Assembly (NCBI RefSeq): GCF_044704955.1
Contig: NC_091990.1
Location: 28,210,001-28,274,000, forward strand
DNA from: Pristiophorus japonicus
Lineage: Eukaryota
Direction of reading: 5' to 3'
DNA length: 64,000 bases
The notes below the pieces were generated by a model, which saw only the letters and a list, made by a program, of their open reading frames with translations, searched no databases and had not been told where the DNA came from. Position numbers and translations under genes: made by a program. Shown here one piece after another: positions 32,901-58,500 of the stretch (its first letter is position 1; every line of letters starts with the position of its first letter).

Positions 32901-33350
32901 TGCCAAGGACTGGGACGATTTCTTTGGTATAGGTCCTTAGTTTGGTGTCGATCCTTGTGAGTTTTGGTCTGTTGCTTTTGTGCGGCCACAGCTGTTCAAA
33001 TTGTTGGACGCTCATGAGAGATTGACGAGCTCCCGTGTCCAGTTCCATGTCGACGGGTATCCCGTTGAGTAGGACCCTCATCATTATTGGAGGCGTCTTG
33101 TTGTAAGAACAGTGGACACTGATCGTGTTGACCCGCTGTGCCTCAGCGTCCCGGGCACTGTCCCCACCGTCTTCTGGTCCGCTTTCCGGCCCTCCTGATT
33201 TGTATACCAGTCGAGCTGCTGTTTTTCTGCACATGCGAGCCAGATGCCCTGTATAGTTGCAGTTTCTGCAAACAGCATGCTGAAATCGACACCCCCTTGT
33301 TGAGTGCCTTCCCCCACATCGCCAGCACAGACCGTTTCCATTGTTTCCGA
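26968..33350 (-). mobile_element. Second Gypsy copy (same family as 1-4223), 5'-truncated within gag, interrupted by CR1
   Basis: LTR 26968-27235, PPT 27236-27250, integrase 27534-28368, RT/RNase H ORF 31041-32399, protease and zinc knuckles 32779-33340. Confidence 0.95.
28369..31049 (+). mobile_element. Young CR1 LINE (EN-RT) inserted in the Gypsy integrase
   Basis: GVVYRPP, MGDFN, GKSDH and RT motifs; ttttctatgtttt tail; tatgg duplicated at both junctions. Confidence 0.95.
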
Positions 33351-33887: not shown

Positions 33888-35550
33888 ATTATAAGAACAT
33901 AAGAACATAAGAAATAGGAGCAGGAATTGACCATACGGCCCTTCGAGCCTGCTCCGCCATTTAATACAGTCATGGCTGATCAGATCATGGACTCAGGTCC
34001 ACATCCCTGCTGCACCCCATAACCCCTTATTCCCTTATTGGTTAAGAAACTGTCCACCTCTGTCTTAAATTTACTCAATGACCCAGCTTCCACAGCTCTC
34101 TGAGGCAGCGAATTCCACAGATTTACAACCCTCTGAGAGAAGAAATTCCTCTTCATCTCAGTTTTAAATGGGTGGCCCCTTATTCTAAGATTATGCCCCC
34201 TAGTTCCAGTCTCCCCTATCAGTGGAAACATTCTCTCTGCATCCACCTTGTCAAGCCCCCTCATAATCTTATACTTTTCGATACAATCACCTCTCATTCT
34301 TCTGAATTCCAATGAGTAGAGGCCCAACCTACTCAACCTTTTCCCATACGTTAACCACCTCATCTCTGGAATCAACCTTGTGAACCTTCTGTGAACTGCC
34401 TTCAAAGCAAGTATAACCTTTCGTAAATATGGAAACCAAAACTGCACGCAGTATTCCAGGTGTGGCCTCACCAATACCCTGTATAACTGTAGCAAGACTT
34501 CCCTGCTTTTATACTCCACCCCCTTTGCAGTAAAGGCCAAGATTCCATTGGCCTTCCTGATCACTTGTTGTACCTGCATACTAACCTTTTGTGTTTCATG
34601 CATAAGTACCCCCAGGCCCCGCTGTACTGCAGCACTTTGCAATCTTTCTCCATTTAAATAACTTGCTCTTTTTAATTTTTTTCTGCCGAAGTGCATGAAC
34701 TCACACTTTCCAACATTATATTCCATCTGGCAAATTTTTGTCCACTTACTTAGCCTGACTATGTCCTTTTGCAGATTTTTTGTGTCCTCCTCACACATTG
34801 CTTTTCCTCCCATTTTTGTATCATCAGCAAACTTGGCTACGTTGCACACAGTCCCTTCTTCCAAGACATTAATGTAGATTGTAAATAGTTGGGGTCCCAA
34901 CACTGATCCCTGCTGCACCCCGAGAATGCCAACCCAAAAATGAACCATTTATCCCGTCTCTCTGTTTTCTGTTAGTTAGCCAATCCTCTATCCATGTGAA
35001 TATATTACCCCCAACCCCGTGAATTTTATCTTGTGCAGTAACCTTTTATGTGGCACCTTGTCAGATGCCTTCTGGAAGTCCAAATGCACCACATCCACTG
35101 GCTCCCCTTTATCCACCCTGTTTGTTACATCCTCAAAGAATTCCAGCAAATTTGTCAAACATGACTTCCCCTTCATAAATCCATGCTGACTCTGCCTGAC
35201 CGAATTTGCTTTTCCAAATGTCCTGCTACTGCTTCTTTAATAATGGACTCCAACATTTTCCCAACCACAGATGTTAGGCTGACTGGTCTATAGTTTCCTG
35301 GTTTTTGTCTGCCTCCTTTTTTTAAATAGGGGCATTACATTTGCAGTTTTCCAATCTGCTGGGACCTCCCCAGAATCGATTGAATTTTGGTAAATTACAA
35401 CCAATGCATCCACTATCCCTGCCGCTACTGCTCTTAAGACCCTAGGATGCACGCCATCAGGTCCAGGGGAGTTATCTGCCTTTACACCCATTATCTTACT
35501 GAGTACCACCTCCTTAGTGATTGTGATTGTGTTAGGTTCCTCCCTCCCTA
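33888..35550 (-). mobile_element. 5'-truncated CR1 LINE
   Basis: (ataagaac)n tail at left; ORFs 33980-34948, 34988-35176 and 35288-35614 carry RT motifs. Confidence 0.92.
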
Positions 35551-35559
35551 TAGGCAAAT

Positions 35560-36423
35560 TATTAAATGAATGAATATACATCAATAAACAGTCATTGTAC
35601 ATGTGTAAGCCCAAAGAGTGAATGTTGACCAGCTATTCGACAACAGGAGGCACCACAGCCTAGTCTGACACTGCCCTCACTCTCTGCCCAGAAGGCAAAC
35701 TCCCAGCAAGTTATTGTGGAGCGATCAGAGCAGGCTGGCTCATTTAATAGGGAGAAGTTTTACATCTACAGTGCAGCAACAGATGATCACACTTGCAGGT
35801 GTTGGATGTGCCGCCCAGTGTCATTTGCCCATTCAGCCCCGGCCCACTGGGGGCTGGAGAGATCGCTGACGGCGCTCGCAGAGCCCCGGGACCTGGCCGC
35901 AACTTTGAAACTTGTGTCAGGGCCACCGGGCTATTCCCGACAAGCGGCCGCTCCCACTCTGGCACCTCTCAATGTACCGGGAGACCGGGGGACACGACAA
36001 GGCTGGGGAAGCCGGCCTCGGAACCGCAACACCGCCCTGCATGCAACCACAAAGCTGCCGTGGCCCAGTGAGTCTCTGAATCAGGGCTCCAGCTGTATTT
36101 AACTTGTCTTTGACTCAGGCATTCCTGGCAATAGACCAAGAGTGTCCCTTCCTGACAACGGGAACCTTAACAATGCTAACACGTAAAGCAAAAGCAATGT
36201 TGTGACTACATATAGGAATGAAACGAAAACAAAGAACATTAGCTCTGATTAAGGGTGAGAACTTTAACTTACCTATTCCTCCCACAGAAACTGACTGATC
36301 TATTGACGCGTGGCTCAAATTAATTGCTTTGGTTTCAATTTCAAGCATTTCAAACAGCAGCAGGAGACTTCTCATGGTGTCCCAGCCAACATTTCTCTCC
36401 CAACTAAAACCACAAGAAAAAGA
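35560..36423 (-). other. Relic upstream region of a fourth B7 gene unit (coding exons absent)
   Basis: Colinear with 25418-26087 + 26620-26873 and with ~47915-48590; homology stops just before where the leader exon would lie. Confidence 0.7.
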
Positions 36424-36890
36424 TTATCCAGTCATTTTCTCTGCTGTTTGTGGGACTTTGCTTCATGCAGACTGGTGGCTGCATTAGCCTCCATTATAAC
36501 AGCGACTACATTTCAAAAGTACTTCAGTTGCTGTGCAGCTCTTTAAGATGTCCTGAGGGTCTGAAAGGCGCTATATCAATGCAATGTATTTCATCCTTTC
36601 CTGCACCCTCAGACTGGCTCTGAGTCCGCTGATTGTTGGTCCAGACACAGTTATAGCCTTAAACTACACAACCTTGGCTGAAACTTTCACTAAAACACGA
36701 CATTGTAGTAACTGCTGACTTGTGGATGAGATGTTAAATTAACGCCATGTCCCCTGCTCTGACAGATGGAAAAGGTCCAACGGTAATATTTGAAGAAGAG
36801 CAGGGAGTTCACCTGGTACCCTGGCCAACGTTCCTGTCTCAACCAACAACACCAAGATCAGGTTATCTGGCCATTCATTCATTTCACGAG

Positions 36891-39310
36891 TCATCATAGG
36901 CAGTCCCTCGAAATCGAGGAAGACTTGCTTCCACTCTAAAAGTGAATTCTTAGGTGACTGAACAGTCCAATACGGGAATTACAGTCTCCGTCACAGGTGG
37001 GACAGTCGTTGAGGGCAAGGGTGGGTGGAACTGCTTTGCCGCACGCTCCTTCCGCTGCCTGCGCTTGATTTCTGCATTCTCTCGGCGACGAGACTCGAGG
37101 TGCTCAGCGCCCTCCCGGATGCATTTCCTCCACTTAGGGCGGTGTTTGGCCAGGGCCTCCCAGATTTTGGTGGGGATGTTGCATTTTATCAAGGAGGCTT
37201 TGAGGGTGTCCTTGTAACGTTTCCGCTGCCCACCTTGGGTTCGCTTGCCGTGTAGGAGTTCCGAGTAGAGCGCCTGCTTTGGGAGCCTTGTGTCAGACAT
37301 GCGAACAATGTGGCCTGCCCAAGGGAGCTGGTGGAGTGTGATCAGTGCTTCGCTCCTGGGGATGATGGCCTGATTGAGGACGCTAACATTGGTGCTAGGT
37401 GGTCTGTCCGCCCAGGGAATTTTCAGGATCCTGCGGAGACATCGTTGGTGGTACTTCTCCAGCGATTTGAAGTCTCTACTGTATATGGTCCACGTCTCTG
37501 AGTCATACAGGAGGGTTGGTATCACTACAGCCCTGTAGTCCATAAGTTTGGTGGCAGATTTGAAGGCCTGATCAGGAGGCCGAAGGCTGCGCTGGCACAC
37601 TGGAGGTGGTGTTGAATCTCATCATCGATGTCTGCCCTTGCTTAAAGTAGGCTCCCAAGGTATGGAACATGGTCCACGTTGTCCAGGGCCGTGCAGTGGA
37701 TCTTGATGACTGGGAGGACAGTGCTGTGTGGCAGGGTCAGGTTCTTGGAGGACCTTTGTCTTACGGATGTTTAGTGTAAGGCCCCTGCTTTCGTACACCT
37801 CAGTGAAGATGTAACTATGACTTGTCATTCAATTTCTGAATGTGCGCAGACGCAAGCGTTGTCCGCACACTGTAGTTCGACGACAGAGGTTGGGACGGTC
37901 TTGGATCTGGCCTGGAGACGTCGAAGGTTGAACAGGTTCTCACTGGTATGGAACATGGTCCACGTCGAAGGTTGAACAGGTTCCCACTGGTTCTGTAGTT
38001 TAGTTCCACTCCCGGCATGCTCTCCTCCTTCCAGATGAGAGAGATGAGGTCATGCATTCTTGCCAATAGTGCCTCTCCGCCATACTTTAGTGCTCAGCGG
38101 GGATTCCATCTACTCCCGACGACTCCTTTTTCTTGAGCTGACGGATGGCCTTTTCTATCTCGTGCAGGGTTGGGGTTTTGCTGAGATGGTGGCGGGTAGC
38201 ATGCTGCGGGATGGAGTCGAGGACCCTTGTGTCAAAGTCAGAGTCTCGATTAAGGAGATCTTCGAAGTGCTCCTTCCAGCGGGTCCTGACTGCCTCGGTG
38301 TCCTTGATGAGTGTCTCCCTGCTCTTGGCCAGCAGTGGGGTGGGGCCTTGGGTGCTTGGGCCAGAGGTGGACTTGACTGCGGTGAAGAATTCTCGCACAT
38401 CATGGCTGTCGGCCAGCTGCTGAATCTTCTGTGCTTTCTCCATCCACCATCTATTCTTTAGGTCACTGGTTTTTTGTTGGACCTTGGCTTTAAGCCATCT
38501 GTAATGCTGCTTTGCTGCTCCCGAGTTGGGTTGTTGTTTTAGATTCAGAAATGCCCTACGCTTGCGATGTATTAGCTCTTGGATCTCCTGGTCATTCTCA
38601 TCAAACCAATCCTGGTGTTTCTTGGTTGAGTGACCGAGCGTCTCTTCGCAGGAATTGGTTATGGTGGTCTGGAGGGCGGACCAAGCGCTGTGGACATTCT
38701 GCATCTCGGGGTCATCAAGGGTTGCCAGGTTAGCAGTGAGGTGCTGGCTGTATAGGGCTCTCTTAGCTGGGTCTTTGAGTGACCCGGCCTTGACTTTTTT
38801 GCGGCACTGCTTCTGCTGCCGTCGCCACTTTGGGGCTATGTTGATGTTGATGATGGAACGGATTAGGCGGTGGTCTGTCCAGCAGTCGTCAGCTCCTGTC
38901 ATAGTGCGGGTGATGCGCACATCCTTGCGATGCCAGACTCGAACGATGACATAGGCGAACAGGTGCCAGTGTTTGGAGCGAGGGTGTTGCCACGATGCCT
39001 TGTACTTGTCCCTCTGGTGGAACAAGGTGTTCGTGATGACAACGTCGTGCTCTAGGCATTTTGTCAGGAGCAGGGTACCGCTGGAATTGGTTTTCCCTAC
39101 CCCCTCTCTGCCGATCATGCCTTCCCAGAGGGCTGTGTCCTTTCCGACCCTGGCATTGAAGTCGCCAAGAAGGATCAGTTTGTCGTCTGTAGGGACACGG
39201 GATAGGGATTTTTCGAGGTTGGAATAAAAACCCTCTTTGGTCTCATCTGTTGCATTGAGGGTTGGGGCGTACGCACTGATGACTGTGGTGCATTGATTCC
39301 GGGATAGGAT
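36891..39310 (-). mobile_element. RTE LINE with internal RT deletion and rearrangement
   Basis: tcatcataggcagtccct tail; EN domain (SAYAPT, LGDFNARVG, WTDHRL) in ORF 38087-39373; C-terminal ORF 36950-37600. Confidence 0.9.
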
Positions 39311-39498
39311 AGGATACGATGTTGTATAAAGGCAAGTTCTTTCTCGCGATTTCTCTCGTTTAACATCTGTCAAAGTAAAATAACTTTTGCCGGCAATATT
39401 TCTTATTGCTGCTGGAGAGCAAAGGAAATGGCCCTCTATAGCTGTCTAAAGTCCTTCAACTTCCCCAGAATAGTTTGCATTTTCTTTTTGATACTCAC

Positions 39499-39671
39499 CT
39501 TGTTGTACACATGAACAGTTTTACTCTTATGTACAGTAAGAGTGCTCTGCCCTTCAGACACTTCTGTTCTCTGCAGTACTTGTATTCTGGGCGGTGTTAG
39601 GACCCTTCAATCCATGCAATAGCTGAGGGCTCCAAACCAGACAATGGCCCCGAGCAGATCCAGTAATGTTT
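39499..39671 (-). other. Candidate exon (possible spliced cytoplasmic-tail or 3' exon of copy B); paralog at 55716-55888
   Basis: attcag acceptor and consensus AAG|gtgagt donor, followed by a short intron ending tttcctttgctctccag; open for 38 codons in the phase of the TM-exon donor CAG|gtatat. Confidence 0.4.
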
Positions 39672-40339
39672 CTGAATTGAGGTAAATCAATCTATTTTAT
39701 ATTATTTATTGCAAACATGCCTTTTCACCATGGTGCATGTGTAAATTTGAGCCCAGATTAAATAGGTATTATTTAGTATCATTATCCAGTAAATGTAAAG
39801 CCCCCAAACTGAACTTTAGCACGGGTAGCTGCAAGGCAGTGGCTGCTCCTGGTTGTATTCCATTCCAGCAGCCTTTATACTCTGCCAGTCCTCTTCATAT
39901 CAACCAGTCTGAAGCAGCTGGCTGCAACCCAACGATAAAGCTGACACTTTCACTCTGTCCAGAGACTCTGTAAAAAGCAGCTCTAAACCCTGCCACTGGA
40001 CGGAGCAAATTCTGGCAGGTTGTCTTTGGTTGCAGCTGGCCACATGGGGACAGGCACTTGTTGCAGAGTCTAAAAGCTGCATGAGTAGTTATCTTACAAT
40101 GTGCTTGTATCTTCCATTGTGCCAGTGTTAAAATCTAGCCGGCAGTTTACATCATTCCTGACAGCAGGTTGGTCTTTATAACGTTGCTACGCATAGCCAC
40201 CCCAATTTGAAGAGCAGCGTTGTAAACTGAGCTGGATGGTGCCTCCAGAGCAGCCCAAACTTAACGCAAGAGGTGGTTTTCACCGGAATTGATGTAGACG
40301 TTCTGCTTTATTGTGCAGCACAAGAACAACAGAAATACA

Positions 40340-40910
40340 ACTGCATATGCAAGACCAGGAGAGATGCCTGAGGTGGAGCAGAGGGAGAAGCATTGCAAGA
40401 GATATGTTGCCTATGTGAGGAAAGGTTGGAGTAGCACTATGTAAAGGAAATGCCACAGAAGTTGTCCATGGAGAGGAGACGGCAGAGAAATATGGTGTGA
40501 TCAACTGCATTGAAAACTGTGGCGAGGTCAAGGCGAGGTCAAGGCAAGATAATGTTGGTGATTTTGACCAGTGTGGTCCCCATCCTGTGCTGGGATACAA
40601 TACAAACTGAAGGGATGGGAAGATGGAGGGTAAGAAGAAGTGAGCATGGAGGTGGGTGACAATGACACAGTTGTTGAGCTTGGAGAGAAAGGGGAGGTCA
40701 GAGATGGAGCAATAGATGAGTGGGGTAGGAAGCAATGCCCCAGGAAACGGAGCAATTGACAAGGCCAGCAAACAGGTCACCACGGAAAGGTAGTTAAGTG
40801 CATTGATCAATATAGGGGAGATGACACAAAGTATTGAGGCTGAGGGCATTGAGACAAGGAAATGGTCAGAGATGTCCTTGTTGGTAATTGACATTGTGGC
40901 TATGGTGAGA
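40340..40910 (-). mobile_element. Old L2-type LINE fragments (paralog 56560-57110)
   Basis: ISDHFLVS (EN end) and LDLTTVFNAVDHTIFL (RT) remnants. Confidence 0.65.
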
Positions 40911-41942
40911 GCAAGTGTGTTGTGGTGAGTTCAGGGTGAGTTTTTTCCTTGGACTTGGAATGTGGGCAACATTGGCGAGGCTGTATTTATTGCCCATCCC
41001 AAGTTATCCTGAAGGTATTGAAGCTCAACCACATAATGTGGGACTGGAGTCACATGTGGACCAGAACAGTTGGTGTTTTACAACAATCCGAAAGCTTTAA
41101 TAGCCACTTTTCTGCTGCTAGCCCCATAGTATTAAATTTTCATCAAATTCAATTTCACAATTCGCCATGTAGGGTTTTCACTCAAAACCTTTGGATTGCT
41201 GATCTGGTGCCATAACCGCGAGGCTACTCTAATAAAGGCAGAGGGCAGAGACGTTGGTGGAAGGGGACAAGGGAATTTAGCTGTGAGTGGAATTAACTAG
41301 TTCCCATGTGAATCCTCTTGTTATGGCACTGATTCACTTTTACAAGATGTCTTATTACCTAGAGGTGAAAACATTGAGATTTGGGAAGGTTATCGACACG
41401 ATGAACAAAATATTGCCCTCCACAGTTTACATTCCAGCACTGAAATACTTTCCATCTATAAAAGCTAATGTAAATCAGCTTGATCTCCTTCTCTGGCTGG
41501 GTGTCAATTTTTTTCTGGCTACGCTTGTTTAATGTACCTTGGACATTTTGCTACATTAAGGGTGTTATAAATGCCAGATGGGGCCAGACAAGAAAATCGT
41601 CCCAATCACACTTCTATACTCTATTCCCGCTTCACTTCATTCACTTTTGTTCCATCCAATTATCGTCTGATCTTGAATGTTGACAAAGTGCCTGCTTCAA
41701 ACCTCAATTCTGAAAGTGAATTCCACTCCACAAAACTGTGTGGAGAAAGAAGTTTCTCACGTTTCCTGTTCTAAATCTCATATTTAATCTTGTATCTATG
41801 GCCTCGTTCTTTATTTCCTCAGCTACTGAGACAGCCTTTTTTCTTCTTTCTCAAACTTTCAGTCCTTGTCTTTGTATCTGTTTTTCTTCACTCTTTCCTT
41901 CTCCTGGTTTTCACCCAAGCGGCCCAAGTTTGAAGTTTAGAG

Positions 41943-42408
41943 TCAGTCGTGGCTCAGTGGGTAGCACATTCGCTTCAGAGTCAGAAGGTTGTGGGTCCAA
42001 GTCCCTATCCAGAGACTTGAGCACAAAAAGCTTGGCTGGCACTCCAGTGCAGTGCTGAAGGAGTGCTGCACTGTCAGAGGTGCAGTCTTTTGGATCAGAT
42101 GTTAAACTGAGGTTAGGGTTAGGGGTTAGGGTTAGACCTGTCTGCTCTCAGGTGGATGTAAAAGATCCCATGGCAATATTTCAAAGAAGAGCAGGGGAGT
42201 TATCCATGGTGTCCTGGCCAATATTTATCCCTCAATCAACATTAAAAAAAACAAATGATCTGGTCATTATCAAATTGCTGTTTGTGGGAGCTTGTTGTGC
42301 TCAAATTGGCTGCCATGTTTCACTGCACTCCAAAAGTACTTCATAGGCTGTAAAGCGCTTTGAGACATCTGGTGGTCGTGAAAGGCGCTATATAAATGCA
42401 CGTCTCTT
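41943..42408 (+). mobile_element. tRNA-derived SINE (SacSINE1/DeuSINE-like)
   Basis: A box tggctcagtggg, B-box-like ggtccaagtcc, central gagcaggggagtt...cctggccaatatttatccctca, L2-like tail gaaaggcgctatataaatgca. Confidence 0.8.
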
Positions 42409-43829
42409 TGACCAAGTTTTTAGTCATCCTTCCTAACATCTCCTTCTCTGATTTAGTGTCAATTCTCTTCTGATTTCACTTTTTAAACTGTCTTTAATGT
42501 TTTTCTACATTAAAGGTGTTATATAAATGCTACGTGTTGATGATGTTGTTTACCCTCCATAGCAGCAAATAGTCCCATTCACACTTACACACCCTAGTCC
42601 CAAATATCCAAACTAATCTTCAAATGTTGACATGGCCTCAACCCCTAATCCTGAAAGTGAATTCCACTCCACACCCTGTGTGTAAAGAAGTTTCTCAAGT
42701 TCTTTGTTCAATATCTCATACATTTATTCTTGTATCTATGGCCCCTTGTTTTGGAGTCGTTAACTACTGACATAGCTTTCTATCTCAAAATTTCACTCCT
42801 CGTCTCTGTAGCTGTTTTTTCCCTCACTCTTTCTTTCTCCTCTGCAAGTGTCTCCTTCCCTCTGTTTCCGAATTTTCCTCTATGTCCTTCACTCTGCGTG
42901 AATTTTATTTCTGTTCTTTTGTCTCGCACTCTCTCTTTCTATCTTCATGTCTATCACTGTCTCCTCTTTCCTTTACCTCCAGTACTGTCCTAGAGCCAGA
43001 CCTGGGGCTCCAAATCTCCATATAGCCACAGAAATGACCTCATCTGTGATGGGAGGGGGAAGAGCTTGCAGCTGGCAAGGAATGGGATGGATGTTCAATC
43101 ATGGCCCGAGATAGAGGGAGCTGTGATGGGAGCATCTGTGCATGCTGGGACAGGCACTGTAGTGGAGGTCCCATGAAAACATAAAACATTTCTCTGACTG
43201 TTCCTCCCACTACCCTCCACACCCCCTCCCCCTCACCACCACCACACCTTCCCCTGGCGTATGCCAGCTGCATTTTCTTGGCAGTCCTTGAGCAGTATGA
43301 TTGATGCACTGGGTTGTGCCAGAATATATATTCAATGCGCTGCCCTCGCATTATTGAATGAGAACAGCTGAGTGTGCACAAGTACACGTGGTGCCTGAGG
43401 GGAGTGCTCCCAACAATGCAGTACCGGGCCAGCACTGTTGAGACCAGTGATATTCTACAACCTCAATTCATGCGAGAATGGTGGAACATTAAATACCAAA
43501 CCAGAGTCATACATACTTGATTGCTGTGTTTAATTCAGAAATAAATAAGTCAGTGAAACATAAGGAGTAGGAATGACAATAGAAAACAGATTAGACAAAT
43601 ACTCAGGGTGCAGGGAAACATTTGCAAACATACAACACAGCCAGCATCTAGAAATTGTCGGTTGGCTACTACAGCACTTTTTTCAATTATTAATAGGTTT
43701 AGAACACAACCAGTCATCAAACACTCCCCTTCCTCTTATTCTCATGTAGTTACAGATAGCTCCGTCAACTGACCAGTTAGATAATCTCTCTCACTGAATA
43801 TTACAAACATCTCCTTATCAGCTCAAGTT

Positions 43830-43970
43830 CATATGGATCACTCAGTATGAATACAGGTGGATCTCTCGATGAGATTGCATGTGGATCACGGTATGATACC
43901 AAGTGTATCTCTCGATGAGATTACATGTGGATCACTCGATAACATTGCATGTGGATCATTCATCCATATT
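43830..43970. repeat. Degenerate ~24-bp tandem repeat (ggatcactc... core); paralogs at 18901-19015 and 59100-60745 (split by CR1)
   Basis: ggatc(a/t)ctc motif recurring at ~24-nt spacing. Confidence 0.6.
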
Positions 43971-44111
43971 CCAACCATTCAGACTCATTCATTGGAACAA
44001 AGAGCACTCACAGAATATCCATTTGTACCCAAACACCCCAAATCGAGACTCACACTCCAGCAGAGAATTGGTTACAACAACCATCGGGAAAATTTGAGAT
44101 CCAAAGTCATC

Positions 44112-44194
44112 TCATGGCGGACCTGATTTAATGTATTCGATTTTCATTGGTTTAATATACCTGTGTTTATGTAACATGACAGCAAGTACTATTA

Positions 44195-44228
<34 letters not shown>

Positions 44229-44305
44229 GAGTATAGTCCCCAGAATCCAACTTGTGAGGGCTGTATAATAATTGCAGGAAAGTTCTTGGTTCCAGATAGA
44301 ATTTT
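44112..44305 (-). CDS. Copy B stalk/TM/cytoplasmic exon (alternative donor possible at 44161)
   Basis: ENSIWNQELSCNYYTALTSWILGTIL(I)10TIIVLAVMLHKHRYIKPMKIEYIKSGPP*. Confidence 0.85.
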
Positions 44306-47300
44306 CTGAAATTAGAAAATAATAAAGGAAAAAATCTTTTATTCATTGAATAAAAAGAATCAAAAATAGAAGCAGCACAAAAAATATCACAAGTAGGTTC
44401 TATTCAAATGCGACTGAGTTTCTGGTGGGTGGAATTGACTAAAATGATGAGCATTGGCAAATTACTGAATCCTCAACTTAAATGTACTAACGATGAAAAT
44501 TGTGTGAATTGAATGTGTTTCCTATAGATTAATTTTCTTAAAATAATAAATCAATGACTCAGTCATTATTATGAAAAATGAAAGTCTAGCTCCTCCAGTG
44601 GCTCAGTGAGTCTCTGCAGTAAGTAGCTGAGTCAGGCAGTCTCACATTCAATATATGCTGAATTAGCGGATAACAGCTGGGACAGCGGTACGGATGTGAC
44701 AATTGGTCTTAATGCTCGAGGGTTATCAGTGAGCCATTCTAAAACTGCACCTTTGTGATGAGGATAGGATCAGGTACAGCTCTGATGCACCATTGATAAT
44801 CCTCCTGGTAAAAACTACTATTAATGTTCCCACATAAATAATAACCAGCCTGAATGTGGGAGTGGCCTGGTACCTTCAAGAGAGATGGAGAAGAAGAAAA
44901 TTGGTGAGGGAAAAAAAGGCAAGGTCTTACCTGGAATAAGAAAACTAAGTGTCCTGGAGGTAGTTTGATTGACAGCAGCATTTCGTAACACAAATGTATA
45001 GTTTGATCTCCTTTCCGTGACATTGATTTCGATAGTGCTTTGGACTGTGTACAGACTGTCGGCAGTTTGCTGGTGTGAAGATTTGGACAAAAGGGAATTA
45101 TCCAGGTCGTCTCCGTTGTACCAAGAAACATCAGCCTTCGGGTACCCTCGAGACTCGAACGTTAAAATGGTGCTGGACAGTTTCTGGTTGATCAACAGCA
45201 TCGGCTCATTGTAGTATGCTGCAAAATTAAAACAATCAATCATTCAGTCTTGCCTCTTCAGTCATAAATGTTACACTGCCATTGCTGAAGACCTTTGGTA
45301 AATGCTTGGTCTACATTGCAGAAAAATACATGAACTAATAAAATGATTATAAAGTTGCTGGTTACCACCTGTCACTTATTTGCTTGAAGTACAAGGGGTG
45401 CAGCACGGAGAGCTGGGGGTCAAGTGCGTACTTGATATTTGAGTTCTGCACAGGTTGAGCATCCTCAGAAGAGGAAAAAATGATTTGATCACAATCTCAC
45501 TTCATCATGGGCAGATTAGCCTGACCCTTACCCCAGGGAACATCTATACTCCGGGCACAAAGATTATAAAAGGGTTTAAAGCCAATTACGCCAAGCATCC
45601 ACCTCCTTTAGACTGCCCTGGGATTTCCTGGGATTGCTCCAAAGGCGGAGTAGGACCTGTGCCAGCAAGAGGCGCAGTCACTGTGCTCACTCAAATGAGG
45701 TGGAAGGGACATTCCTGGCCTCCTACTGGATAGATCTCCCTTTGCAACCCAGGGGCATCCAGATGTAGAGGTACCCCAAGAAGCTGAAGGTGGGCCCTGT
45801 GTTCTGTACCCAATTGGGTCAGTGGGTGTGAGGGGACATGGCAGTAAAGCAAAGAGAAACCGAAAGGTATCTGAAAGTTTTTTTTTAAACTACGACTTAT
45901 TAGATCGTCTGCCATTCAGGCAACTGTTCTCCAACTGACATTTCCTGAATCAAGGCCCGGTAAGGAGTACTAGGGCTGTGACCGGACCATATTCAAATGG
46001 AGCTCGAACTTCAGAGAGGGGGCCCGGTAAATCAGCCTCGAGTGCTATTGTGAGGCATCATAAAACTAAATGTTCCAATACAGTGAATCTCCTCCAAATT
46101 TTATCCAGTGATTCAGGCAATTTGAGAAATGTTCCAACAGCACGAGATTAAATAATGGGCTATATTAGCTCGATCCCACAGTGTGCCTAATAAAACTTAA
46201 TGAGAAGAAGTTTACAGTACATGGCCTGTTACCCGTTCACTGTGAATAGAGGGAGAGGATGAATCCCAGGCTACATTGCCGTAGCATGAGTCAGCAACTT
46301 CAGGTAAGATGGGGAACTAAGATAAGAGAAATATGTTCAGTATATTTACCTGCAAATTTGAGAGAGACTACTCCTTTCTCATGCCCAATTGTAGTACTGA
46401 CATAACACTGGTACAGTCCAGTGTCCTCTGGTCTTACTGCTTCCAATTTCAGTGAAGCATTTCCATTTTGAAACTCCTGTGGGAATAGACTTGTTCTGCC
46501 TGAATATTGAGGATGCTGCTTGCTGAACTGGTCTTCTCCATAATAATAACTGTGGACAACCTCATCGGTCTCGACACGCTGCCAGGTGACAATGAGATTC
46601 TCCACAGTTGGTCCTCTAGTCACAGTGAAACTGCATCCTAGCACAGCAATTTGGCCATGGATAGCTGTCACTGGTCCCTTAATCATCCTGACTTCAAATC
46701 CTTCTGCGAGTTAAAAGGAGGAAGAATAAAATGTTAGAAATGTGGTAAAAAACCCACAGAAAATGCTAATAGAATCCTCAGCAGGTCAGTCAATATCTGT
46801 GCTCAGAAATGCTCACAGTACTCCCGGTGTGGTCTAAGCAGGTCTCTGTATAGCTGCAGCTTAACTTCGACCATCTTGTATTCTAGTCTTCTAGATATAA
46901 AGGCCAGCACTCCATTAGCCTTTTGATTATTTTTTTCGAACTGTTCATGGTATTTTAATAATCTATGTACCTGCTCCAATTAGTTTGCAAAAGAATGACT
47001 TACATTTATTTAGTGCCTTTCATGAACACCAGACATTTCAAAGCACTTGAGAGCCAGTAAGTACTTGGAGTGTAGTCACTGTTGTAATGTGGGAAATGCA
47101 GCAGCCAATTTGCACACAGCAAGCTCCCACAAACACCAACGTGATAATGGCCAGAAAAACAGTTTGTTTTATGTCGATTGAGGGTTAAATATTGGCCAGG
47201 ACATCGGGGATAACTCCCGTGCCTTCCTTCAAAATTGTGCCATGGGATCTTTTAAATCAACCTGAGAGAGCAGACAGGGCCTCAGTTTAACATCTCTCCC

Positions 47301-47859
47301 ATAGTGCAGCACTCCCTCAGCACTGTAGTGTCAGCCTAGATTTATGTGCTCAAGCCTCTGGAGTGGGACTTGAACCCACACCTTCAGACGACAAAGGCAA
47401 GCATGCTACCCACTGAGCCACAGCTGTAGATACTGCTGATGTTCTGATGGAGGATTTATTCACCAATGATGTAAAACTACTTATCCTAACTCATTCCAAA
47501 CAACCAGCCTCACAAAATTCAAACAGGTCAAACCTGCAAGTAAGAAATGAGAATGGCTAAAGAACGCAGTGGACTGCATCGTGAATGGTTAGAGGTGAAT
47601 AAGGTTTAACGGGCCATAATTCACACCCTGTGTTTACCCATAGGACCAATCACCTCCTCGATTGTTTGGTTATAAATGAAAAACTGATTTTAAAGCTGCC
47701 AGTTATAAAAATAATAATTCTGCACAAATATTGAACCGTAACAAAAAACAAATGCAGAACATCACACTGAATTCCTTGAAATTAAGTTAGTTATGACTTA
47801 CGACCAACTATGAGTTGTCCCCACAGCACAAGAATATGGAACTCAGATTTCAATCTCAT
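44112..47859 (-). CDS. B7-family IgV-IgC type I membrane protein, copy B (HHLA2/CD276/VTCN1-like), ~297 aa; exons 47859-47802, 46703-46350, 45218-44931, 44305-44112
   Basis: All junctions GT-AG and phase 1; 58+354+288+194=894 nt open frame. Leader MRLKSEFHILVLWGQLIVG; IgV with B7-type VHSYYYG..Q..Y.GRTSLF...GNASL; IgC-like GYPKADVSW; hydrophobic TM followed by HKHR. Confidence 0.88.
44931..45218 (-). CDS. Copy B IgC-like exon (no cysteines)
   Basis: 288 nt; ttttgcag|CA acceptor; CCAG|gtaaga donor; AYYNEP...ILTFESRGYPKADVSWY...YTVQSTI...NYTFVLRN. Confidence 0.9.
46350..46703 (-). CDS. Copy B IgV exon
   Basis: 354 nt, phase 1-1, canonical C, W and DxGxYxC. Confidence 0.93.
46990..47425 (-). 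mobile_element. tRNA-derived SINE, same family as 41943-42408 (paralog 63750-64000)
   Basis: Reverse-complement A box (cccactgagccac), B box (ggacttgaacc) and central Deu-like core. Confidence 0.8.
47802..47859 (-). CDS. Copy B signal-peptide exon (coding part)
   Basis: ATG...GGT C|gtaagt; acceptor tttctttcttttaag at 47871; homologous to 25298-25376. Confidence 0.8.
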
Positions 47860-49007: not shown

Positions 49008-50282
49008 GATCGGGAGGGCGGGGGTGGGGGGGTGAAATTAATTACTGCCCCGTTTAGGGGGCGTGAAACTTTGCGGCAGGTGCGCAGGTCCCGCCCGGTT
49101 TCCGCCCCGCCCCCGGAGGGAAGTGGAGCGTGTGATTTGGGGCAGTAACGGGGCCGAGCGGCTCAGCAGCACAACGCAGTCCGAGAGGCTCCTCCCTCAA
49201 TTAAAGGGAAAGGCCCACGCTGCCGACTCTGCAGAAGAAGGTGGCACCTACATGGATCGCCAGGGACCAAGTGCCAGACTGTGCGATCGCGGCCACAGTC
49301 CCGCGTCGAAACCACATCAGGAATGGCAACGAAAAGGTGATTTTTGTTTCAGCACTCGGCCATCTCCCCTTTAATCTTCGCCCCGGTAGCGGCCGGCCGG
49401 CCGGCCGATACGTGTCCTCTGAAGCTGATGCTGTTATCGCCCCGATCTGCTTCAGCGGGCGGAAGCCAATTTCGGGACCGGGGCGCTAACAGGCCGGTAC
49501 CCACGCCGAAGACGTCACGATCTCCGGGCACGGGAGATCGGGGAGCACCGTAACATTGCCGCTACCTCCTGCCCAAGGTGGCGGGTCTTGTTGCCAGCGG
49601 ATTCCCCACTCAGGCCTGAGTTAAAATTACAGTCGGGCTTCAATTATGTCATTGGGACGCAACATGCATGTGTAAAGAAGGACCCTGTTGGTTCCGGGCG
49701 CCTGTCCTTGCTGCCTGCTCAGGAGAGCAGGTTAAAATTGCAGATGTTGCTATCATGGCTGCTTTCAGACAGGTAAGAGCCAGGACAACTTTAAGTGCCC
49801 ACCCGCCAGTTGTCTGCTGTGCGAATATGGTTAAAATCGCCCCCAATATATTTGAAGACTATGTTATAATCAATATAGCTGCTGAATGAGTTGCAAGGAG
49901 ATTGCCTGTAAAATCACAGGGGGATGAAGGAAAAAGTTATTATTTTTTATCTTGTGTCTTCATATCTTCACTTGCTAGCTCCTTCTGTTTCATGACTACC
50001 TTGTGAGTTTTTTTGAGTGGGCTTGAGCCCCACTCAGAGATTTGAACCCATAATCGAATCAGACATTTCAGTGTCGCACTGAAGGAATGCTACAATGTTG
50101 AAAGTGGTCATTCAGGTGCCTTGTTAGATTGACGCTCAATCTGCCCTCTCAGGTGAATGTAAAAGATTCCATGGCACAATTAAAAAAAGAGCAGGGAAGT
50201 TCTCCTGGTACCCTGGCCAACGTTCCTGTCTCAACCAACAACACCAAGATCAGGTTATCTGGCCATTCATTCATTTCACGAG

Positions 50283-53200
50283 TCATCATAGGCAGTCCCT
50301 CGAAATCGAGGAAGACTTGCTTCCACTCTAAAAGTGAATTCTTAGGTGACTGAACAGTCCAATACGGGAATTACAGTCTCCGTCACAGGTGGGACAGTCG
50401 TTGAGGGAAAGGGTGGGTGGAACTGCTTTGCCGCACGCTCCTTCCGCTGCCAGCGCTTGATTTCTGTATTCTCTCGGCAACGAGACTCGAGGTGCTCAGC
50501 GCCCTCCCGGATGCATTTCCTCCACTTAGGGCGGTGTTTGGCCAGGGCCTCCCAGATTTTGGTGGGGATGTTGCATTTTATCAAGGAGGCTTTGAGGGTG
50601 TCCTTGTAACGTTTCCGCTGCCCACCTTGGGCTCGCTTGCCGTGAAGGAGTTCCGAGTAGAGCGCCTGCTTTGGGAGCCTTGTGTCAGGCATGCGAACAA
50701 TGTGGCCTGCCCAAGGGAGCTGGTGGAGTGTGATCAGTGCTTCGCTCCTGGGGATGTTGGCCTGATCGAGGACGCTAACATTGGTGCTAGGTGGTCTGTC
50801 CGCCCAGGAAATTTTCAGGATCTTGCGGAGACATCGTTGGTGGTATTTCTCCAGCGATTTGAAGTCTCTACTGTATATGGTCCACGTCTCTGAGCCATAC
50901 AGGAGGGCTGGTATCACTACAGCCCTGTAGTCCATAAGCTTGGTGGTAGATTTGAGGGCCTGATCAGGAGGCCGAAGGCTGCGTTGGCACACTGGAGGTG
51001 GTGTTGAATCTCGTCATCGATGTCTGCCCTTGCTTAAAGTAGGTTGCCAAGGTATGGAACATGGTCCACGTTGTCCAGGGCCATGCAGTGGATCTTGATG
51101 ACTGGGGGGACAGTGCTGTGTGGCGGGGTCAGGTTCTTGGAGGACCTTTGTCTTACGGATGTTTAGTGTAAGGCCCCTGCTTTCGTACACCTCAGTGAAG
51201 ATGTAACTATGACTTGTCATTCAATTTCTGAATGTGCGCAGACGCAAGCGTTGTCCGCACACTGTAGTTCGACGACAGAGGTTGGGACGGTCTTGGATCT
51301 GGCCTGGAGACGTCGAAGGTTGAACAGGTTCTCACTGGTATGGAACATGGTCCACGTCGAAGGTTGAACAGGTTCCCACTGGTTCTGTAGTTTAGTTGCA
51401 TTCCCGGCATGCTCTCCTCCTTCCAGATGAGAGAGATGACGTCATGCATTCTTGCCAATAGTGCCTCTCCGCCATACTTTAATGCCTAAGTGGGGATTCC
51501 ATCTACTCCCGACGACTCCTTTTTCTTGAGCTGATGGATGGCCTTTTCTATCTCGTGGGATTACGGAGACGTGGCTCCAGGATGATCAGGGCTGGGAACT
51601 CAACATTCAGGGGTATTCAACATTCAGGAAGGATAGAATAAAAGGAAAAGGAGGTGGGGTAGCATTGCTGGTTAAAGAGGAGATTAATGCAATAGTTAGG
51701 AAAGACATTAGCTTGGATGATGTGGAATCTATATGGGTAGAGCTGCAGAACACCAAAGGGCAAAAAACGTTAGTAGGAGTTGTGTACAGACCTCCAAACA
51801 GTAATAGGGATGTTGGGGAGGGCATCAAACAGGAAATTAGGGGTGCATGCAATAAAGGTGTAGCAGTTATAATGGGTGACTTTAATATGCACATAGATTG
51901 GGCTAGCCAAACTGGAAGCAATACGGTGGAGGAGGATTTCCTGGAGTGCATAAGGGATGGTTTTCTAGACCAATATGTTGAGGAACCAACTAGGGGGGAG
52001 GCCATCTTAGACTGGGTGTTGTGTAATGAGAGAGGATTAATTAGCAATCTCATTGTGCGAGGCCCCTTGGGGAAGAGTGACCATAATATGGTGGAATTCT
52101 GCATTAGGATGGAGAATGAAACAGTAATTTCAGAGACCATGGTCCAGAACTTAAAGAAGGGTAACTTTGAAGGTATGAGGCGTGAATTGGCTAGGATAGA
52201 TTGGCGAATGATACTTAGGGGGTTGACTGTGGATGGGCAATGGCAGACATTTAGAGACCGCATGGATGAATTACAACAATTGTACATTCCTGTCTGGCGT
52301 AAAAATAAAAAAGGGAAGGTGGCTCAACCGTGGCTATCTAGGGAAATCAGGGATAGTATTAAAGCCAAGGAAGTGGCATACAAATTGGCCAGAAATAGCA
52401 GCGAACCCGGGGACTGGGAGAAATTTAGAACTCAGCAGAGGAGGACAAAGGGTTTGATTAGGGCAGAGAAAATGGAGTACGAGAAGAAGCTTGCAGGGAA
52501 CATTAAGGCGGATTGCAAAAGTTTCTATAGGTATGTAAAGAGAAAAAGGTTGGTGAAGACAAACGTAGGTCCCCTGCAGTCAGAATCAGGGGAAGTCATA
52601 ACGGGGAACAAAGAAATGGCAGACCAATTGAACAAGTACTTTGGTTCGGTATTCACTAAGGAGGATACAAACAACCTTCCGGATATAAAAGGGGACAGAG
52701 GGTCTAGTAAGGAGGGGGAACTGAGGGAAATCTTTATTAGTCGGGAAATTGTGTTGGGGAAATTGATGGGATTGAAGGCCGATAAATCCCCAGGGCCTGA
52801 TGGACTGCATCCTAGAGTACTTAAGGAGGTGGCCTTGGAAATAGCGGATGCATTGACAGTCATTTTCCAACATTCCATTGACTCTGGATCAGTTCCTATG
52901 GAGTGGAGGGTAGCCAATGTAACCCCACTTTTTAAAAAAGGAGGGAGAGAGAAAACAGGGAATTATAGACCGGTCAGCCTGACCTCAGTAGTGGGTAAAA
53001 TGATGGAAATATTATTAAGGATGTCATAGCAGTGCATCTGGAAAATGGTGACATGATAGGTCCAAGTCAGCATGGATTTGTGAAAGGGAAATCATGCTTG
53101 ACAAATCTTCTGGAATTTTTTGAGGATGTTTCCAGTAAAGTGGACAAAGGAGAACCAGTTGATGTGGTATATTTGGACTTTCAGAAGGCTTTCGACAAGG

Positions 53201-55530
53201 TCCCACACAAGAGATTAATGTGCAAAGTTAAAGCACATGGGATTGGGGGTAGTGTGCTGACGTGGATTGAGAACTGGTTGTCAGACAGGAAGCAAAGAGT
53301 AGGAGTAAACGGGTACTTTTCAGAATGGCAGGCAGTGACTAGTGGAGTGCCGCAAGGTTCTGTGCTGGGGCCCCAGCTGTTTACATTGTACATTAATGAT
53401 TTAGACGAGGGGATTAAATGCAGTATCTCCAAATTTGCGGAGGATACCAAGTTGGGTGGCAGTGTGAGCTGCGAGGAGGATGCTATTAGGCTGCAGAGTG
53501 ACTTGGATAGGTTAGGTGAGTGGGCAAATGCATGGCAGATGAAGTATAATGTGGATAAATGTGAGGTTATCCACTTTGGTGGTAAAAACAGAGAGACAGA
53601 CTATTATCTGAATGGTGACAGATTAGGAAAAGGGAAGGTGCAACGAGACCTGGGTGTCATGGTACATCAGTCATTGAAGGTTAGCATGCAGGTACAGCAG
53701 GCGGTTAAGAAAGCAAATGGCATGTTGGCCTTCATAGCGAGGGGATTTGAATACAGGGGCAGGGAGGTGTTGCTACAGTTGTACAGGGCCTTGGTGAGGC
53801 CACACCTGGAGTATTGTGTACAGTTTTGGTCTCCTAACTTGAGGATGGACATTCTTGCTATTGAGGGAGTGCAGCGAAGGTTCACCAGACTGATTCCCGG
53901 GATGGCGGGACTGACCTATCAAGAAAGATTGGATCAACTGGGCTTGTATTCACTGGAGTTCAGAAGAATGAGAGGGGACCTCATAGAAACGTTTAAAATT
54001 CTGACGGGTTTAGACAGGTTAGATGCAGAAAGAATGTTCCCAATGTTGGGGAAGTCCAGAACCAGGGGTCACAGTCTGAGGATAAGGGGTAAGCCATTTA
54101 GGACCGAGATGAGGAGAAACTTCTTCACCCAGAGAGTGGTGAACCTGTGGAATTCTCTACCACAGAAAGTAGTTGAGGCCAATTCACTAAATATATTCAA
54201 AAGGGAGTTAGATGAAGTCCTTACTACTCGGGGGATCAAGGGTTATGGTGAGAAAGCAGGAAGGGGGTACTGAAGTTTCATGTTCAGCCATGAACTCATT
54301 GAATGGCGGTGCAGGCTAGAAGGGCTGAATGGCCTGCTCCTGCACCTATTTTCTCTGTTTCTATGTTTTCTATGTTTCTATGTGCAGGGTTGGGGTTTTG
54401 CTGAGATGGTGGCGGGTAGCATGCTGCGGGATGGAGTCGAGGACCCTTGTGTCAAAGTCAGAGTCTCGATTAAGGAGATCTTCGAAGTGCTCCTTCCAGC
54501 AGGTCCTGACTGCCTCGGTGTCCTTGATGAGTGTCTCCCCGCTCTTGGCCAGCAGTGGGGTGGGGCCTTGGGTGCTTGGGCCAGAGGTGGACTTGACTGC
54601 GGTGAAGAATTCTCGCACATCATGGCTGTCGGCCAGCTGCTGAATCTTCTGTGCTTTCTCCATCCACCATCTATTCTTTAGGTCACTGTTTTTTTGTTGG
54701 ACCTTGGCTTTAAGCCGTCTGTAATGCTGCTTTGCTGCTCCAGAGTTGTATTTTTTTAGGTTCAGAAATGCCCTGCACTTGCGATGTATTAGCTCTTGGA
54801 TCTCCTGGTCATTCTCATCAAACCAATCCTGGTGTTTCTTGGTTGAGTGACCGAGCGTCTCTTCGCAGGAATTGGTTATGGTGGTCTGGAGGGCGGACCA
54901 AGCGCTGTGGACATTCTGCATCTCGGGGTCATCAAGGGTTGCCAGGTTAGCAGTGAGGTGCTGGCTGTATAGGGCTCTCTTAGCTGGGTCTTTGAGTGAC
55001 CCGGCCTTGACTTTTTTGCGGCACTGCTTCTGCTGCCATCGCCACTTTGGGGCTATGTTGATGTTGATGATGGAACGGATTAGGCGGTGGTCTGTCCAGC
55101 AGTCGTCAGCTCCTGTCATAGTGCGGGTGATGCGCACATCCTTGCCTTGCCAGACTCGAACGATGACATAGGCGAGCAGGTGCCAGTGTTTGGAGCGAGG
55201 GTGTTGCCACGATGCCTTGTACTTGTCCCTCTGGTGGAACAAGGTGTTCGTGATGACAACGTCGTGCTCTAGGCATTTTGTCAGGAGCAGGGTACCGCTG
55301 GAATTGGTTTTCCCTACCCCCTCTCTGCCGATCATGCCTCCCCAGAGGGCTGTGTCCTTTCCGACCCTGGCATTGAAGTCGCCAAGAAGGATCAGTTTGT
55401 CGTCTGTAGGGACACGGGATAGGGATTTTTCGAGGCTGGAATAAAAACCCTCTTTGGTCTCATCTGTTGCATTGAGGGTTGGGGCGTACGCACTGATGAC
55501 TGTGGTGCATTGATTCCGGGATAGGATAGG
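50283..55530 (-). mobile_element. Duplicated RTE LINE (paralog of 36891-39310), split by CR1
   Basis: Near-identical to 36891-39310, including the internal deletion. Confidence 0.9.
51558..54381 (+). mobile_element. Young CR1 LINE, near-complete ORF2 with one frameshift
   Basis: ORFs 51665-53029 (EN) and 53032-54273 (RT); (tttctatg)n tail; absent at the paralogous site ~38161. Confidence 0.95.
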
Positions 55531-58500
55531 ATACGATGTTGTATAAAGGCAAGTTCTTTCTCGCGATTTCTCTCGTTTAACATCTGCCAAAGTAAAATAA
55601 CTTTTGCCGGCAATATTTCTTATTGCTGCTGGAGTGCAAAGGAAATGGCCCTCTATAGCTGTCTAAAGTTCTTCAACTTCCCCAGAATAGTTTGCATTTT
55701 CTTTTTGATACTCACCTTGTTGTACACATGAACAGTTTTACTCTTATGTACAGTAAGAGTGCTCTGCCCTTCAGACACTTCTGTTCTCTGCAGTACTTGT
55801 ATTCTGGGCGGTGTTAGGACCCTTCAATCCATGCAATAGCTGAGGGCTCCAAACCAGACAATGGCCCCGAGCAGATCCAGTAATGTTTCTGAATTGAGGT
55901 AAATCAATCTATTTTATATTATTTATTGCAAACATGCCTTTTCACCATGGTGCATGTGTAAATTTGAGCCCAGATTAAATAGATATTATTTAGTATCATT
56001 ATCCAGTAAATGTAAAGCCCCCAAACTGAACTTTAGCACGGGCAGCTGCAAGGCAGTGGCTGCTCCTGGTTGTATTCCATTCCAGCAGCCTTTATACTCT
56101 GCCAGTCCTCTTCATATCAACCAGTCTGAAGCAGCTGGCTGCAACCCAACGATAAAGCTGACACATTCACTCTGACCTGAGACTCTGTAAAAAGCAGCTC
56201 TAAACCCTGCCACTGGACGGAGCAAATTCTGGCAGGTTGTCTTTGGTTGCAGCTGGCCACATGGGGACAGGCACTTGTTGCAGAGTCTAAAAGCTGCATG
56301 AGTAGTTATCTTACAATGTGCTTGTATCTTCCATTGTGCCAGTGTTAAAATCTAGCCGGCAGTTTACATCATTCCTGACAGCAGGTTGGTCTTTATAACG
56401 TTGCTACGCATAGCCACCCCAATTTGAAGAGCAGCGTTGTAAACTGAGCTGGATGGTGCCTCCAGAGCAGCCCAAACTTAACGCAAGAGGTGGTTTTCAC
56501 CGGAATTGATGTAGACGTTCTGCTTTATTGTGCAGCACAAGAACAACAGAAATACAACTGCATATGCAAGACCAGGAGAGATGCCTGAGGTGGAGCAGAG
56601 GGAGAAGCATTGCAAGAGATATATTGCCCATGTCGGGATAGGTTGGAATAGCACTATGTAAAGGAAATGCCACAGAAGTTGTCCATGGAGAGGAGACGGC
56701 AGAGAAATATGGTGTGATCAACTGCATTGAAAACTGTGGTGAGGTCAAGGCAAGATAATGTTGGTGATTTTGACCAGTGTGGTCCCCATCCTGCGCTGGG
56801 ATACAATACAAACTGAAGGGATGGGAAGATGGAGGGTAAGAAGAAGTGAGCATGGAGGTAGGTGACAATGACACAGTTGTTGAGCTTGGAGAGAAAGGGG
56901 AGGTCAGAGATGGAGCAATAGATGAGTGGGGTAGGAAGCAATGCCCCAGGAAACGGAGCAATTGACAAGGCCAGCAAACAGGTCACCACGGAAAGGTAGT
57001 TAAGTGCATTGATCAATATAGAGGAGATGACACAAAGTATTGAGGCTGAGGGCATTGAGACAAGGAAATGGTCAGAGATGTCCTTGTTGGTAATTGACAT
57101 TGTGGCTATGGTGAGAGCAAGTGTGTTGTGGTGAGTTCAGGGTGAGTATTTTCCTTGGACTTGGAATGTGGGCAACATTGGCGAGGCCGTATTTATTGCC
57201 CATCCCAAGCTTTCCTGAAGGTATTGAAGCTCAACCACATAATGTGGGACTGGAGTCACATGTGGACCAGAACAGTTGGTGTTTAACAACAATCCAGAAG
57301 CTTTAATAGCCACATTTCTGCTGCTAGCCCCATAGTATTAAATTTTCATCAAATTCAATTTCACAATTCGCCATGTAGGGTTTTCACTCAAAACCTTTGG
57401 ATTGCAGATCTGGTGCCATAACCGCGAGGCTACTCTAATAAAGGCAGAGGGCAGAGACGTTGGTGGAAGGGGACAAGGGAATTTAGCTGTGAGTGGAATT
57501 AACTAGTTCCCATGTGAATCCTCTTGTTATGGCACTGATTCACTTTTACATGATGCCTTATTACCTAGAGGTGAAAACATTGAGATTTGGGAAGCTTATC
57601 GACACGATGAACAAAATATTGCCCTCCACAGTTTACATTCCAGCACTGAAATACTTTCCATCTATAAAAGCTAATGTAAATCAGCTTGATCTCCTTCTCT
57701 GGCTGGGTGTCATTTTTTTTCTGGCTACGCTTCTTTAATGTACCTTGGACATTTTGCTACATTAAGGGTGTTATATAAATACCAGATGGGGCCAGACAAG
57801 AAAATCGTCCCAATCACACTTCTATACTCTATTCCCGCATCACTTCATTCACTTTTGTTCCATCCAATTATCGTCTGATCTTGAATGTTGACAAAGTGCC
57901 TGCTTCAAACCTCAATTCTGAAAGTGAATTCCACTCCACACCCTATGTGTAAAGAAGTTTCTCAAGTTCTTTGTTCAAAATCTCATACATTTATTCTTGT
58001 ATCTATGGCCCCTTGTTTTGGCGTCGTTAACTACTGACATAGCTTTCTATCTCAAAATTTCACTCCTTGTCTCTGTAGCTGTTTTTTCCCTCACTCTTTC
58101 TTTCTCCTCTGCAAGTGTCTCCTTCCCTCTGTATCCGAATTTTCCTCTATGTCCTTCACTCTGCGTGAATTTTATTTCTGTTCTTTTGTCTCGCACTCTC
58201 TCTTTCTATCTTCATGTCTATCACTGTCCCCTCTTTCCTTTACCTCCAGTACTGTCCTAGAGCCAGACCTGGGGCTTCAAATCTCCATATAGCCACAGAA
58301 ATGACCTCATCTGTGATGGGAGGGGGAAGAGCTTGCAGCTGGCAAGGAATGGGATGGATGTTCAGTCATGGCCTGAGATAGAGGGAGCTGTGATGGGAGC
58401 ATCTGTGCATGCTGGGACAGGCACTGAAGAGGAGGTCCCATGAAAACATAAAACATTTCTCTGACTGTTCCTCCCACTACCCTCCACACCCCCTCCCCCT

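Follow-up and report, generated by a model that had tools for sequence, protein, structure and literature searches.

The stretch of DNA analysed here (the window) comprises 64,000 nucleotides of Pristiophorus japonicus chromosome NC_091990.1 (contig C14 in our numbering; positions 28,210,001 to 28,274,000) and carries three copies of a B7-type gene, all on the minus strand (Table 1). Copy 2 is an intact four-exon gene (leader-IgV-IgC-TM) with an open frame of ~297 residues, in which leader, IgV, IgC and transmembrane (TM) segment with a short tail are laid out with one exon per domain in phase 1, as is typical of B7 genes. In contigs from one study, for which the run type is unrecorded, the GT-AG joint 45218/46350 was found in two of three runs and the joint 46703/47802 in all three. 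A single 1,126-base contig joins the leader, V, C and TM exons, the contigs being assignable to neither copy 2 nor copy 3 in particular. Variants within the contigs leave both anchor Phe codons of the IgC exon unchanged in meaning, one of them altering, synonymously, the third position of the F-strand codon. The main spliced contig is a mixture of copy 2-like and copy 3-like letters, and a contig from run X1 carries, at window 45072-45186, variants that match copy 1, including its stop-codon change.

Table 1. Exons and anchor codons of the three B7-type copies, in window coordinates.
Feature	Position	Strand	Remarks
Leader exon, copy 2 (coding part, 58 nt)	47802-47859	-	splice joint 46703/47802
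IgV exon, copy 2	46350-46703	-	canonical Cys, Trp, Cys; Pfam V-set E 2.3e-13
IgC exon, copy 2	45218->44931	-	288 nt, phase 1, AG acceptor/GT donor; no Cys
B-strand anchor, copy 2 IgC	45157-45159	-	Phe (TTC) at canonical Cys position
C-strand core Trp, copy 2 IgC	45121-45123	-	kept
F-strand anchor, copy 2 IgC	44992-44994	-	Phe (TTT) at canonical Cys position
Stalk/transmembrane/short cytoplasmic tail exon to stop, copy 2	44112-44305	-	piece of spliced contig
IgV exon, copy 3	63107-63460	-	leader ~0.6 kb past window end
IgC exon, copy 3	61688-61975	-	Phe at 61914-61916 and 61749-61751
TM/cytoplasmic exon, copy 3	60881-61062	-	
Leader remnant, copy 1 (approximate)	25302-25355	-	61% over 18 aa
IgV exon, copy 1	23571-23924	-	open
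IgC exon, copy 1	~21110-21389	-	pseudogene; retains Phe/Phe, with TAG following the B-strand Phe, GHP and a damaged acceptor
TM exon, copy 1 (approximate ends)	19158-19330	-	in-frame stop

Copy 3 is likewise intact and matches P0001, a shark protein labelled 'CD276 antigen homolog' in the database. Identity between copies 2 and 3 is 98.6% over 4,039 bases, and copy 1 aligns in blocks at 85-90% identity. An initial annotation of this DNA had credited all three copies with the same Phe/Phe pair, GYP motif and glycosylation sequons. The Phe pair is indeed common to all three (codons TTC/TTT, TTC/TTT and TTC/TTC), and copies 2 and 3 carry the sequons NVT, NYT and NQT; copy 1, however, has GHP for GYP, NQI for NQT and an in-frame TAG immediately following the B-strand Phe, in addition to its disrupted acceptor and the stop in its TM exon. 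Copy 1 is thus a pseudogene, and it offers no evidence of constraint. The chromosome carries four paralog groups, and the three copies would represent a recent expansion, in tandem, of one of these; one copy has since decayed. Copies 2 and 3 lie in a segmentally duplicated block that exceeds 10 kb and shows 92-99% identity (window 36766-47241 and 50157-64000), which is either a recent tandem duplication or an uncollapsed haplotype. An ATA/ATT microsatellite in the TM exon (window 44182-44238 and 60958-61003) is translated as a stretch of consecutive Ile residues, with copy 2 having four codons more than copy 3.

The IgC exon of copy 2 contains no Cys at all, and reads ILT-F-ESRGYP on the B strand and NYT-F-VLRN on the F strand. 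It matches the Pfam C2-set_2 (CD80-like C2-set) profile with an E value of 4.9e-06 (26.9 bits against a cut-off of 21). The C-strand Trp and the seven-strand sandwich of a canonical C1/C2-set domain are both evident in sequence, model and structural matches, whereas the disulfide between strands B and F is absent, with Phe at both anchors. The register of the F strand is unambiguous. On the B strand, pairwise alignment to CD276 sets the Cys opposite the Thr preceding the Phe, one residue too early, since in CD276 four residues separate the Cys from GYP (C-x4-GYP). Alignment to PD-L proteins (C-x3-GYP) sets the Cys opposite the Phe itself, and in the multiple alignment a Leu at -2 and a Ser at +2, common to both groups, bring the Cys column onto the Phe. 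The PD-L spacing and the shared Leu and Ser therefore identify the Phe as the Cys position. The proposal in the initial annotation that Phe has replaced both canonical cysteines is borne out by the reading of the exon and by these alignments, the pairwise comparison with CD276 being the one that departs from it by a residue.

Absence of Cys from a domain of this size is not in itself rare; a 95-residue stretch would lack it with a probability of ~0.12, assuming a Cys content of 2.2%. What is not attributable to chance is the recurrence of Phe at both anchors among orthologs. An exon search returned 12 shark and ray proteins, 11 of them with the full domain and all of these Phe/Phe, and with two later rows the combination Phe-Trp-Phe is found in 13/13 orthologs despite a minimum pairwise identity of 48% (mean 65%). 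Both Phe residues are among the 26 invariant columns of the 94 in the ortholog alignment. The same contig holds three further Cys-less paralogs, with anchors F/F, Y/F and L/V, and another (L/F) is found on contig C2713.

The Cys-less state extends well beyond cartilaginous fish. A profile built from four exons of this genome gave 196 matches among 1.84 billion representatives, and in the alignment of the best 150 of the 196 a long run of Cys-less domains precedes the first Cys-bearing ones. Of 22 Cys-less matches 19 could be named, and they belong to Protopterus, Latimeria, Erpetoichthys, Acipenser, Amia, Albula, Arapaima, Anguilla, Conger, Synaphobranchus, Callorhinchus, Heptranchias, Chiloscyllium and the turtle Mauremys. 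A search with the turtle domain showed it across turtles: among the 16 of 153 candidates listed, all were from turtles except one unnamed row. Cys-less IgC relatives thus occur in sharks, rays, chimaera, lungfish, coelacanth, bichir, sturgeon, bowfin, teleosts and turtles. The initial annotation, which described the shared state for three copies, was right about the sharing but understated its reach, since the lineage spans turtles as well as cartilaginous and bony fish. The feature is genuine and under constraint, and marks a wide, old B7-type branch rather than a quirk of three copies.

We collected 137 V+C units, 133 of which have letters at both anchors: 102 with no Cys, 30 with both and one with a single Cys, counts that include isoforms and near-duplicates and come from a sample gathered with a Cys-less profile. 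Within the 102 Cys-less rows the C-strand Trp is invariant (102/102) and the F-strand anchor is nearly so (F94/V6/L2), while the B-strand anchor varies among hydrophobic residues (F42/Y24/V18/L14/A2/M1/I1). The Phe/Phe pair is accordingly not required as a pair, since only the F-strand Phe approaches invariance (94/102). The argument that TTC and TTT lie one change from TGC and TGT carries little weight for a loss this ancient, at a B-strand site where different family members have F, Y, V, L, A, M or I. The combination of Glu142 with Arg226 is found in 92/102 Cys-less rows and in 0/30 Cys/Cys rows. The IgV domain of the lineage keeps its canonical residues (Cys 49/51, Trp 50/51, Cys 51/51).

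Phylogenetic trees were built with both anchor columns removed; they are unrooted, lack CD80/86 and B7-H6, and represent HHLA2- and VTCN1-like rows by single long branches. Since Ig domains in general have Cys/Cys, we took this state to be the ancestral one. In a 74-row LG+G4 tree the Cys-less label needs two changes, and the long row P0098 falls among BTN-like rows; P0098 and another long row, P0178, were left out of subsequent trees. A mixture-model tree separates 51 Cys-less rows from 21 PD-L, CD276, ICOSL and BTN rows along one branch (99/97), and when outgroups from the same genome (CD276, VTCN1-like, V-C-V and BTN-like) are added, 52 Cys-less rows are united with an SH-aLRT of 90. A careful 44-row tree, made from a thinner set with more outgroups, gives 87/89 for the Cys-less union and 100/99 for a core group consisting of the window gene and its relatives in chimaera, lungfish, bichir, sturgeon and teleosts, and a tree of the IgV domain also needs one change (SH-aLRT 83). 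From these trees a single origin of the Cys-less lineage appears likely, if not proven.

The exon codes for the IgC domain nearest the membrane, and the B7-type gene of which it is part is intact and spliced. We consider it probable that this gene belongs to one ancient lineage of jawed vertebrates that lost the disulfide once and is predicted to hold the domain together by a hydrophobic core. Two or more independent losses, with the core group joined by convergence to a second group (turtles, coelacanth, the shark gene on C2713, bowfin and eels), would account for the disparity between 100/99 for the core and 87/89 for the union, and for a B-strand residue that is F or Y in one group and V or L in the other. 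The placement of P0098, which lacks both anchor Cys and groups with BTN-like rows, also indicates that such a loss can recur. We nevertheless judge this history unlikely, as the union reaches 99/97 under the mixture model, is recovered by the IgV tree, which is free of IgC columns, and is accompanied in both groups by Glu142, Gln222 and Arg226 and by the IgV motif VHSYY..QL..Q. P0098 itself, which comes from an eel and has Phe as its B-strand anchor, is possibly an independent loss or else a faulty gene model.

How such a domain might fold without its disulfide can be approached through structure prediction. AlphaFold models the IgC domain alone as seven strands and places the anchors within strands B and F (pLDDT 82), and builds the same sandwich, with the anchors in the same strands, within the whole protein, bearing in mind that it readily gives sequences of this kind an Ig fold. 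The top nine structural matches of the domain model are butyrophilins, PD-L2, CD276, PD-L1, ICOSL and CD80 (Z 12.4-13.4, rmsd 1.8-2.3). Judging from positions in the model, the F-strand Phe and the variable hydrophobic B-strand residue would pack on the conserved Trp. With an F-strand anchor that is near-invariant across the family and a B-strand anchor that is variable but hydrophobic, the core would be filled mainly by the F-strand Phe, and the B-strand site would need no more than a hydrophobic residue. The lineage-specific Glu in strand A and Arg in strand G, together with the three N-glycans of this gene, may add stability. The IgC domain would serve as a glycosylated stalk on which a canonical IgV domain is presented, and the protein, with its short tail, might act as a ligand of a lymphocyte co-receptor, as B7 proteins do.

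Alternatively, the domain may be stable solely in an assembly, either a constitutive dimer or a complex with a partner chain, with the conserved residues of strands A and G forming the interface. Butyrophilin IgC domains dimerise, and they are among the top structural matches; the conserved polar residues Glu142, Gln222 and Arg226 are specific to the lineage; and one paralog group (group D; L006:1501-1788, G000:C14:37.47 Mb; P0015, P0020, P0025 and P0033) combines Leu/Val anchors with a new, conserved Cys pair, hinting at marginal stability. That pair, on the C strand (172) and in the EF loop (209; P0001 numbering), is present in 4/4 rows checked and may be a non-canonical replacement disulfide gained later. 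An obligate assembly nonetheless seems improbable to us: the single domain is predicted with confidence, three sequons sit on it, and the polar residues could equally form an intramolecular clamp. A self-sufficient hydrophobic core remains our preferred explanation.

By sequence and by fold the nearest relatives are B7/BTN proteins, and the gene is of the B7 type. Automatic labels make the Cys-less genes divergent duplicates of CD276 (B7-H3). They share with CD276 the leader-IgV-IgC-TM layout, the best fold match and the best PDB sequence match (E 1.3e-33, against 3.5e-27 for PD-L1), and the source name of nearly all rows is 'CD276 antigen-like'. Ectodomain identity, though, is ~32%, and that to a CD276-group protein just 32-33%. 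CD276 differs in having the IgC disulfide, C-x4-GYP spacing and a branch of its own, and the genome contains a separate, true CD276 on another contig (C21:77.85 Mb), which keeps both IgC Cys and groups with other CD276 rows (100/99). Forcing the core group together with CD276 costs 20.7 log units, at a borderline p-AU of 0.048. We accordingly regard descent from CD276 as quite unlikely. CD276 is unusually conserved (PMC13262535), and this would explain the best hits; the 'CD276-like' label most likely arose because genes were named after their best hit, a protein that evolves slowly. If the lineage were the sister of CD276 at the base of jawed vertebrates, it would merely have been renamed.

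Other B7 families resemble the lineage in part. PD-L1 and PD-L2 share the x3-GYP spacing after the B-strand anchor, the GYPKA.V.W motif and a close IgC fold (Z 13.0-13.4), but keep both Cys, show 26% identity and form a separate 100/100 branch that includes a shark PD-L protein; the trees do not place our genes as their orthologs. A V-C-V locus elsewhere in the genome (C11:80.58-80.59 Mb), which from its architecture we take to be HHLA2-like, shares the IgV motif VHS(F/Y)Y...DQL..Q with the lineage and lies near it in the IgV tree, but has three domains and both IgC Cys, whereas in our genes the TM exon directly follows the C exon. Butyrophilins have an IgV-IgC ectodomain and give a top-tied structural match (Z 13.4), yet they keep Cys, carry a G-W-Y-P motif and occupy a separate branch, and the Pfam matches of P0001 do not include B30.2. 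Both Cys are retained in the VTCN1-like, V-C-V and BTN-like IgC exons of this genome. A search of the same genome found no IgC exon near the IgV exons on C13, C8 and C33, and the ESM Atlas returned generic C2-set/BTN-like clusters only. An intronless frame of ~490 codons (L034:652-2133; G000:C18:102.17 Mb) encodes V, C, V and C B7-like domains with the IgC Cys kept, and is possibly a retro-derived B7-like gene; by eye, P0178 from Latimeria resembles it.

Purifying constraint on the domain is indicated by pairwise dN/dS values of 0.22-0.47 in 15/15 comparisons among six IgC exons of this genome, which are rough because dS exceeds 1 in most. IgV values among the window copies range from 0.58 to 1.44 and rest on 1-5 changes. 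Despite the pseudogene state of copy 1 and the near-identity of copies 2 and 3, local decay of duplicated genes in this genome is hardly conceivable as the cause of the Cys loss, given spliced transcripts, dN/dS below 0.5, the Cys-less state in distant taxa and Phe/Phe in every ortholog, the last of which already refutes it. Cys-keeping orthologs alongside a neutral dN/dS had been named at the outset as what would tell against a paired, compensated loss predating the duplications; neither was found. Orthologs, paralogs, substitution rates, transcripts and a confident Ig fold model support a loss that is paired, is older than the duplications and did not come about by decay.

Loss of the disulfide in Ig domains is already known, which limits surprise; CD4 D3 and CEACAM N are further IgSF domains that have no B-F bridge. 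The disulfide-free state has been held here for more than 400 million years. PMC12051499 describes the Cys-Cys-Trp anchors of the fold and names CD2 as an exception; CD2 resembles our domain in having an Ig fold without the canonical bridge, and differs in that here the domain is of the B7 constant type. The lineage offers a natural example of a constant Ig domain of the secretory pathway without a disulfide, one paralog group of which has seemingly gained a different Cys pair.

Searches of the full-text literature, at the level of titles and abstract openings, found no description of a Cys-less B7 lineage, and a prior mention is quite possible. The accessible portion of a paper on PD-L evolution (PMC12151841) says nothing of one, and B7 terms had no match in one text supplement of PMC3964593. 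PMC13262535 records, in the part available, that B7-related paralogs have expanded in turtles and Cladistia, but does not describe them; these paralogs are probably, in part, the Cys-less genes. CD28-family diversity is the subject of PMC11599192, which lists teleost B7H1, B7H3, B7H4, B7H5 and B7H7 and reports further CD28-family receptors in fish such as CD28HL1-3 and CD28X. We tentatively raise the possibility that the Cys-less genes constitute a B7 subfamily without a name of its own, which would date back to the first jawed vertebrates and be recognisable by an IgC domain that has no disulfide. On this reading it would have expanded in sharks and ray-finned fish and persisted in lungfish, coelacanth and turtles, but have no human member, and its products would be putative ligands for some of the orphan CD28-family receptors lately discovered in cartilaginous and basal bony fish. 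The ancestral B7 repertoire may then have had one branch more than human-centred lists show, and the lineage would supply a candidate ligand set for receptors of the CD28HL1-3/CD28X type. Its anchors also provide a simple sequence marker for a large gene set now lumped as 'CD276-like'.

Within 100 kb on each side there is one clear neighbour, an F-box/LRR gene on the plus strand ~32 kb past the window end (L042:1842-2300; G000:C14:28305842-28309895), which we take to resemble FBXO39 and presumably to provide a link to human 17p13; a tektin gene lies 7 Mb away, at C14:35.46 Mb. Most of the window consists of retrotransposon pieces, presumably Gypsy-like at 1-4224 and 26967-33345, and of many fragments with reverse-transcriptase frames, presumably LINEs, at 4326-10538, 15477-17210, 28359-31053, 33888-39242, 50157-55435 and 59139-60649. 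Tandem arrays occupy window 11033-13898 (period 19, 158 copies) and 24200-24652 (period 20, 22 copies). In the left flank, outside the window, pol/env remains resembling those of endogenous retroviruses were recognised by eye at G000:C14:28117.8-28120.4 kb, 28154.6-28156.3 kb, 28166 kb and 28174 kb.
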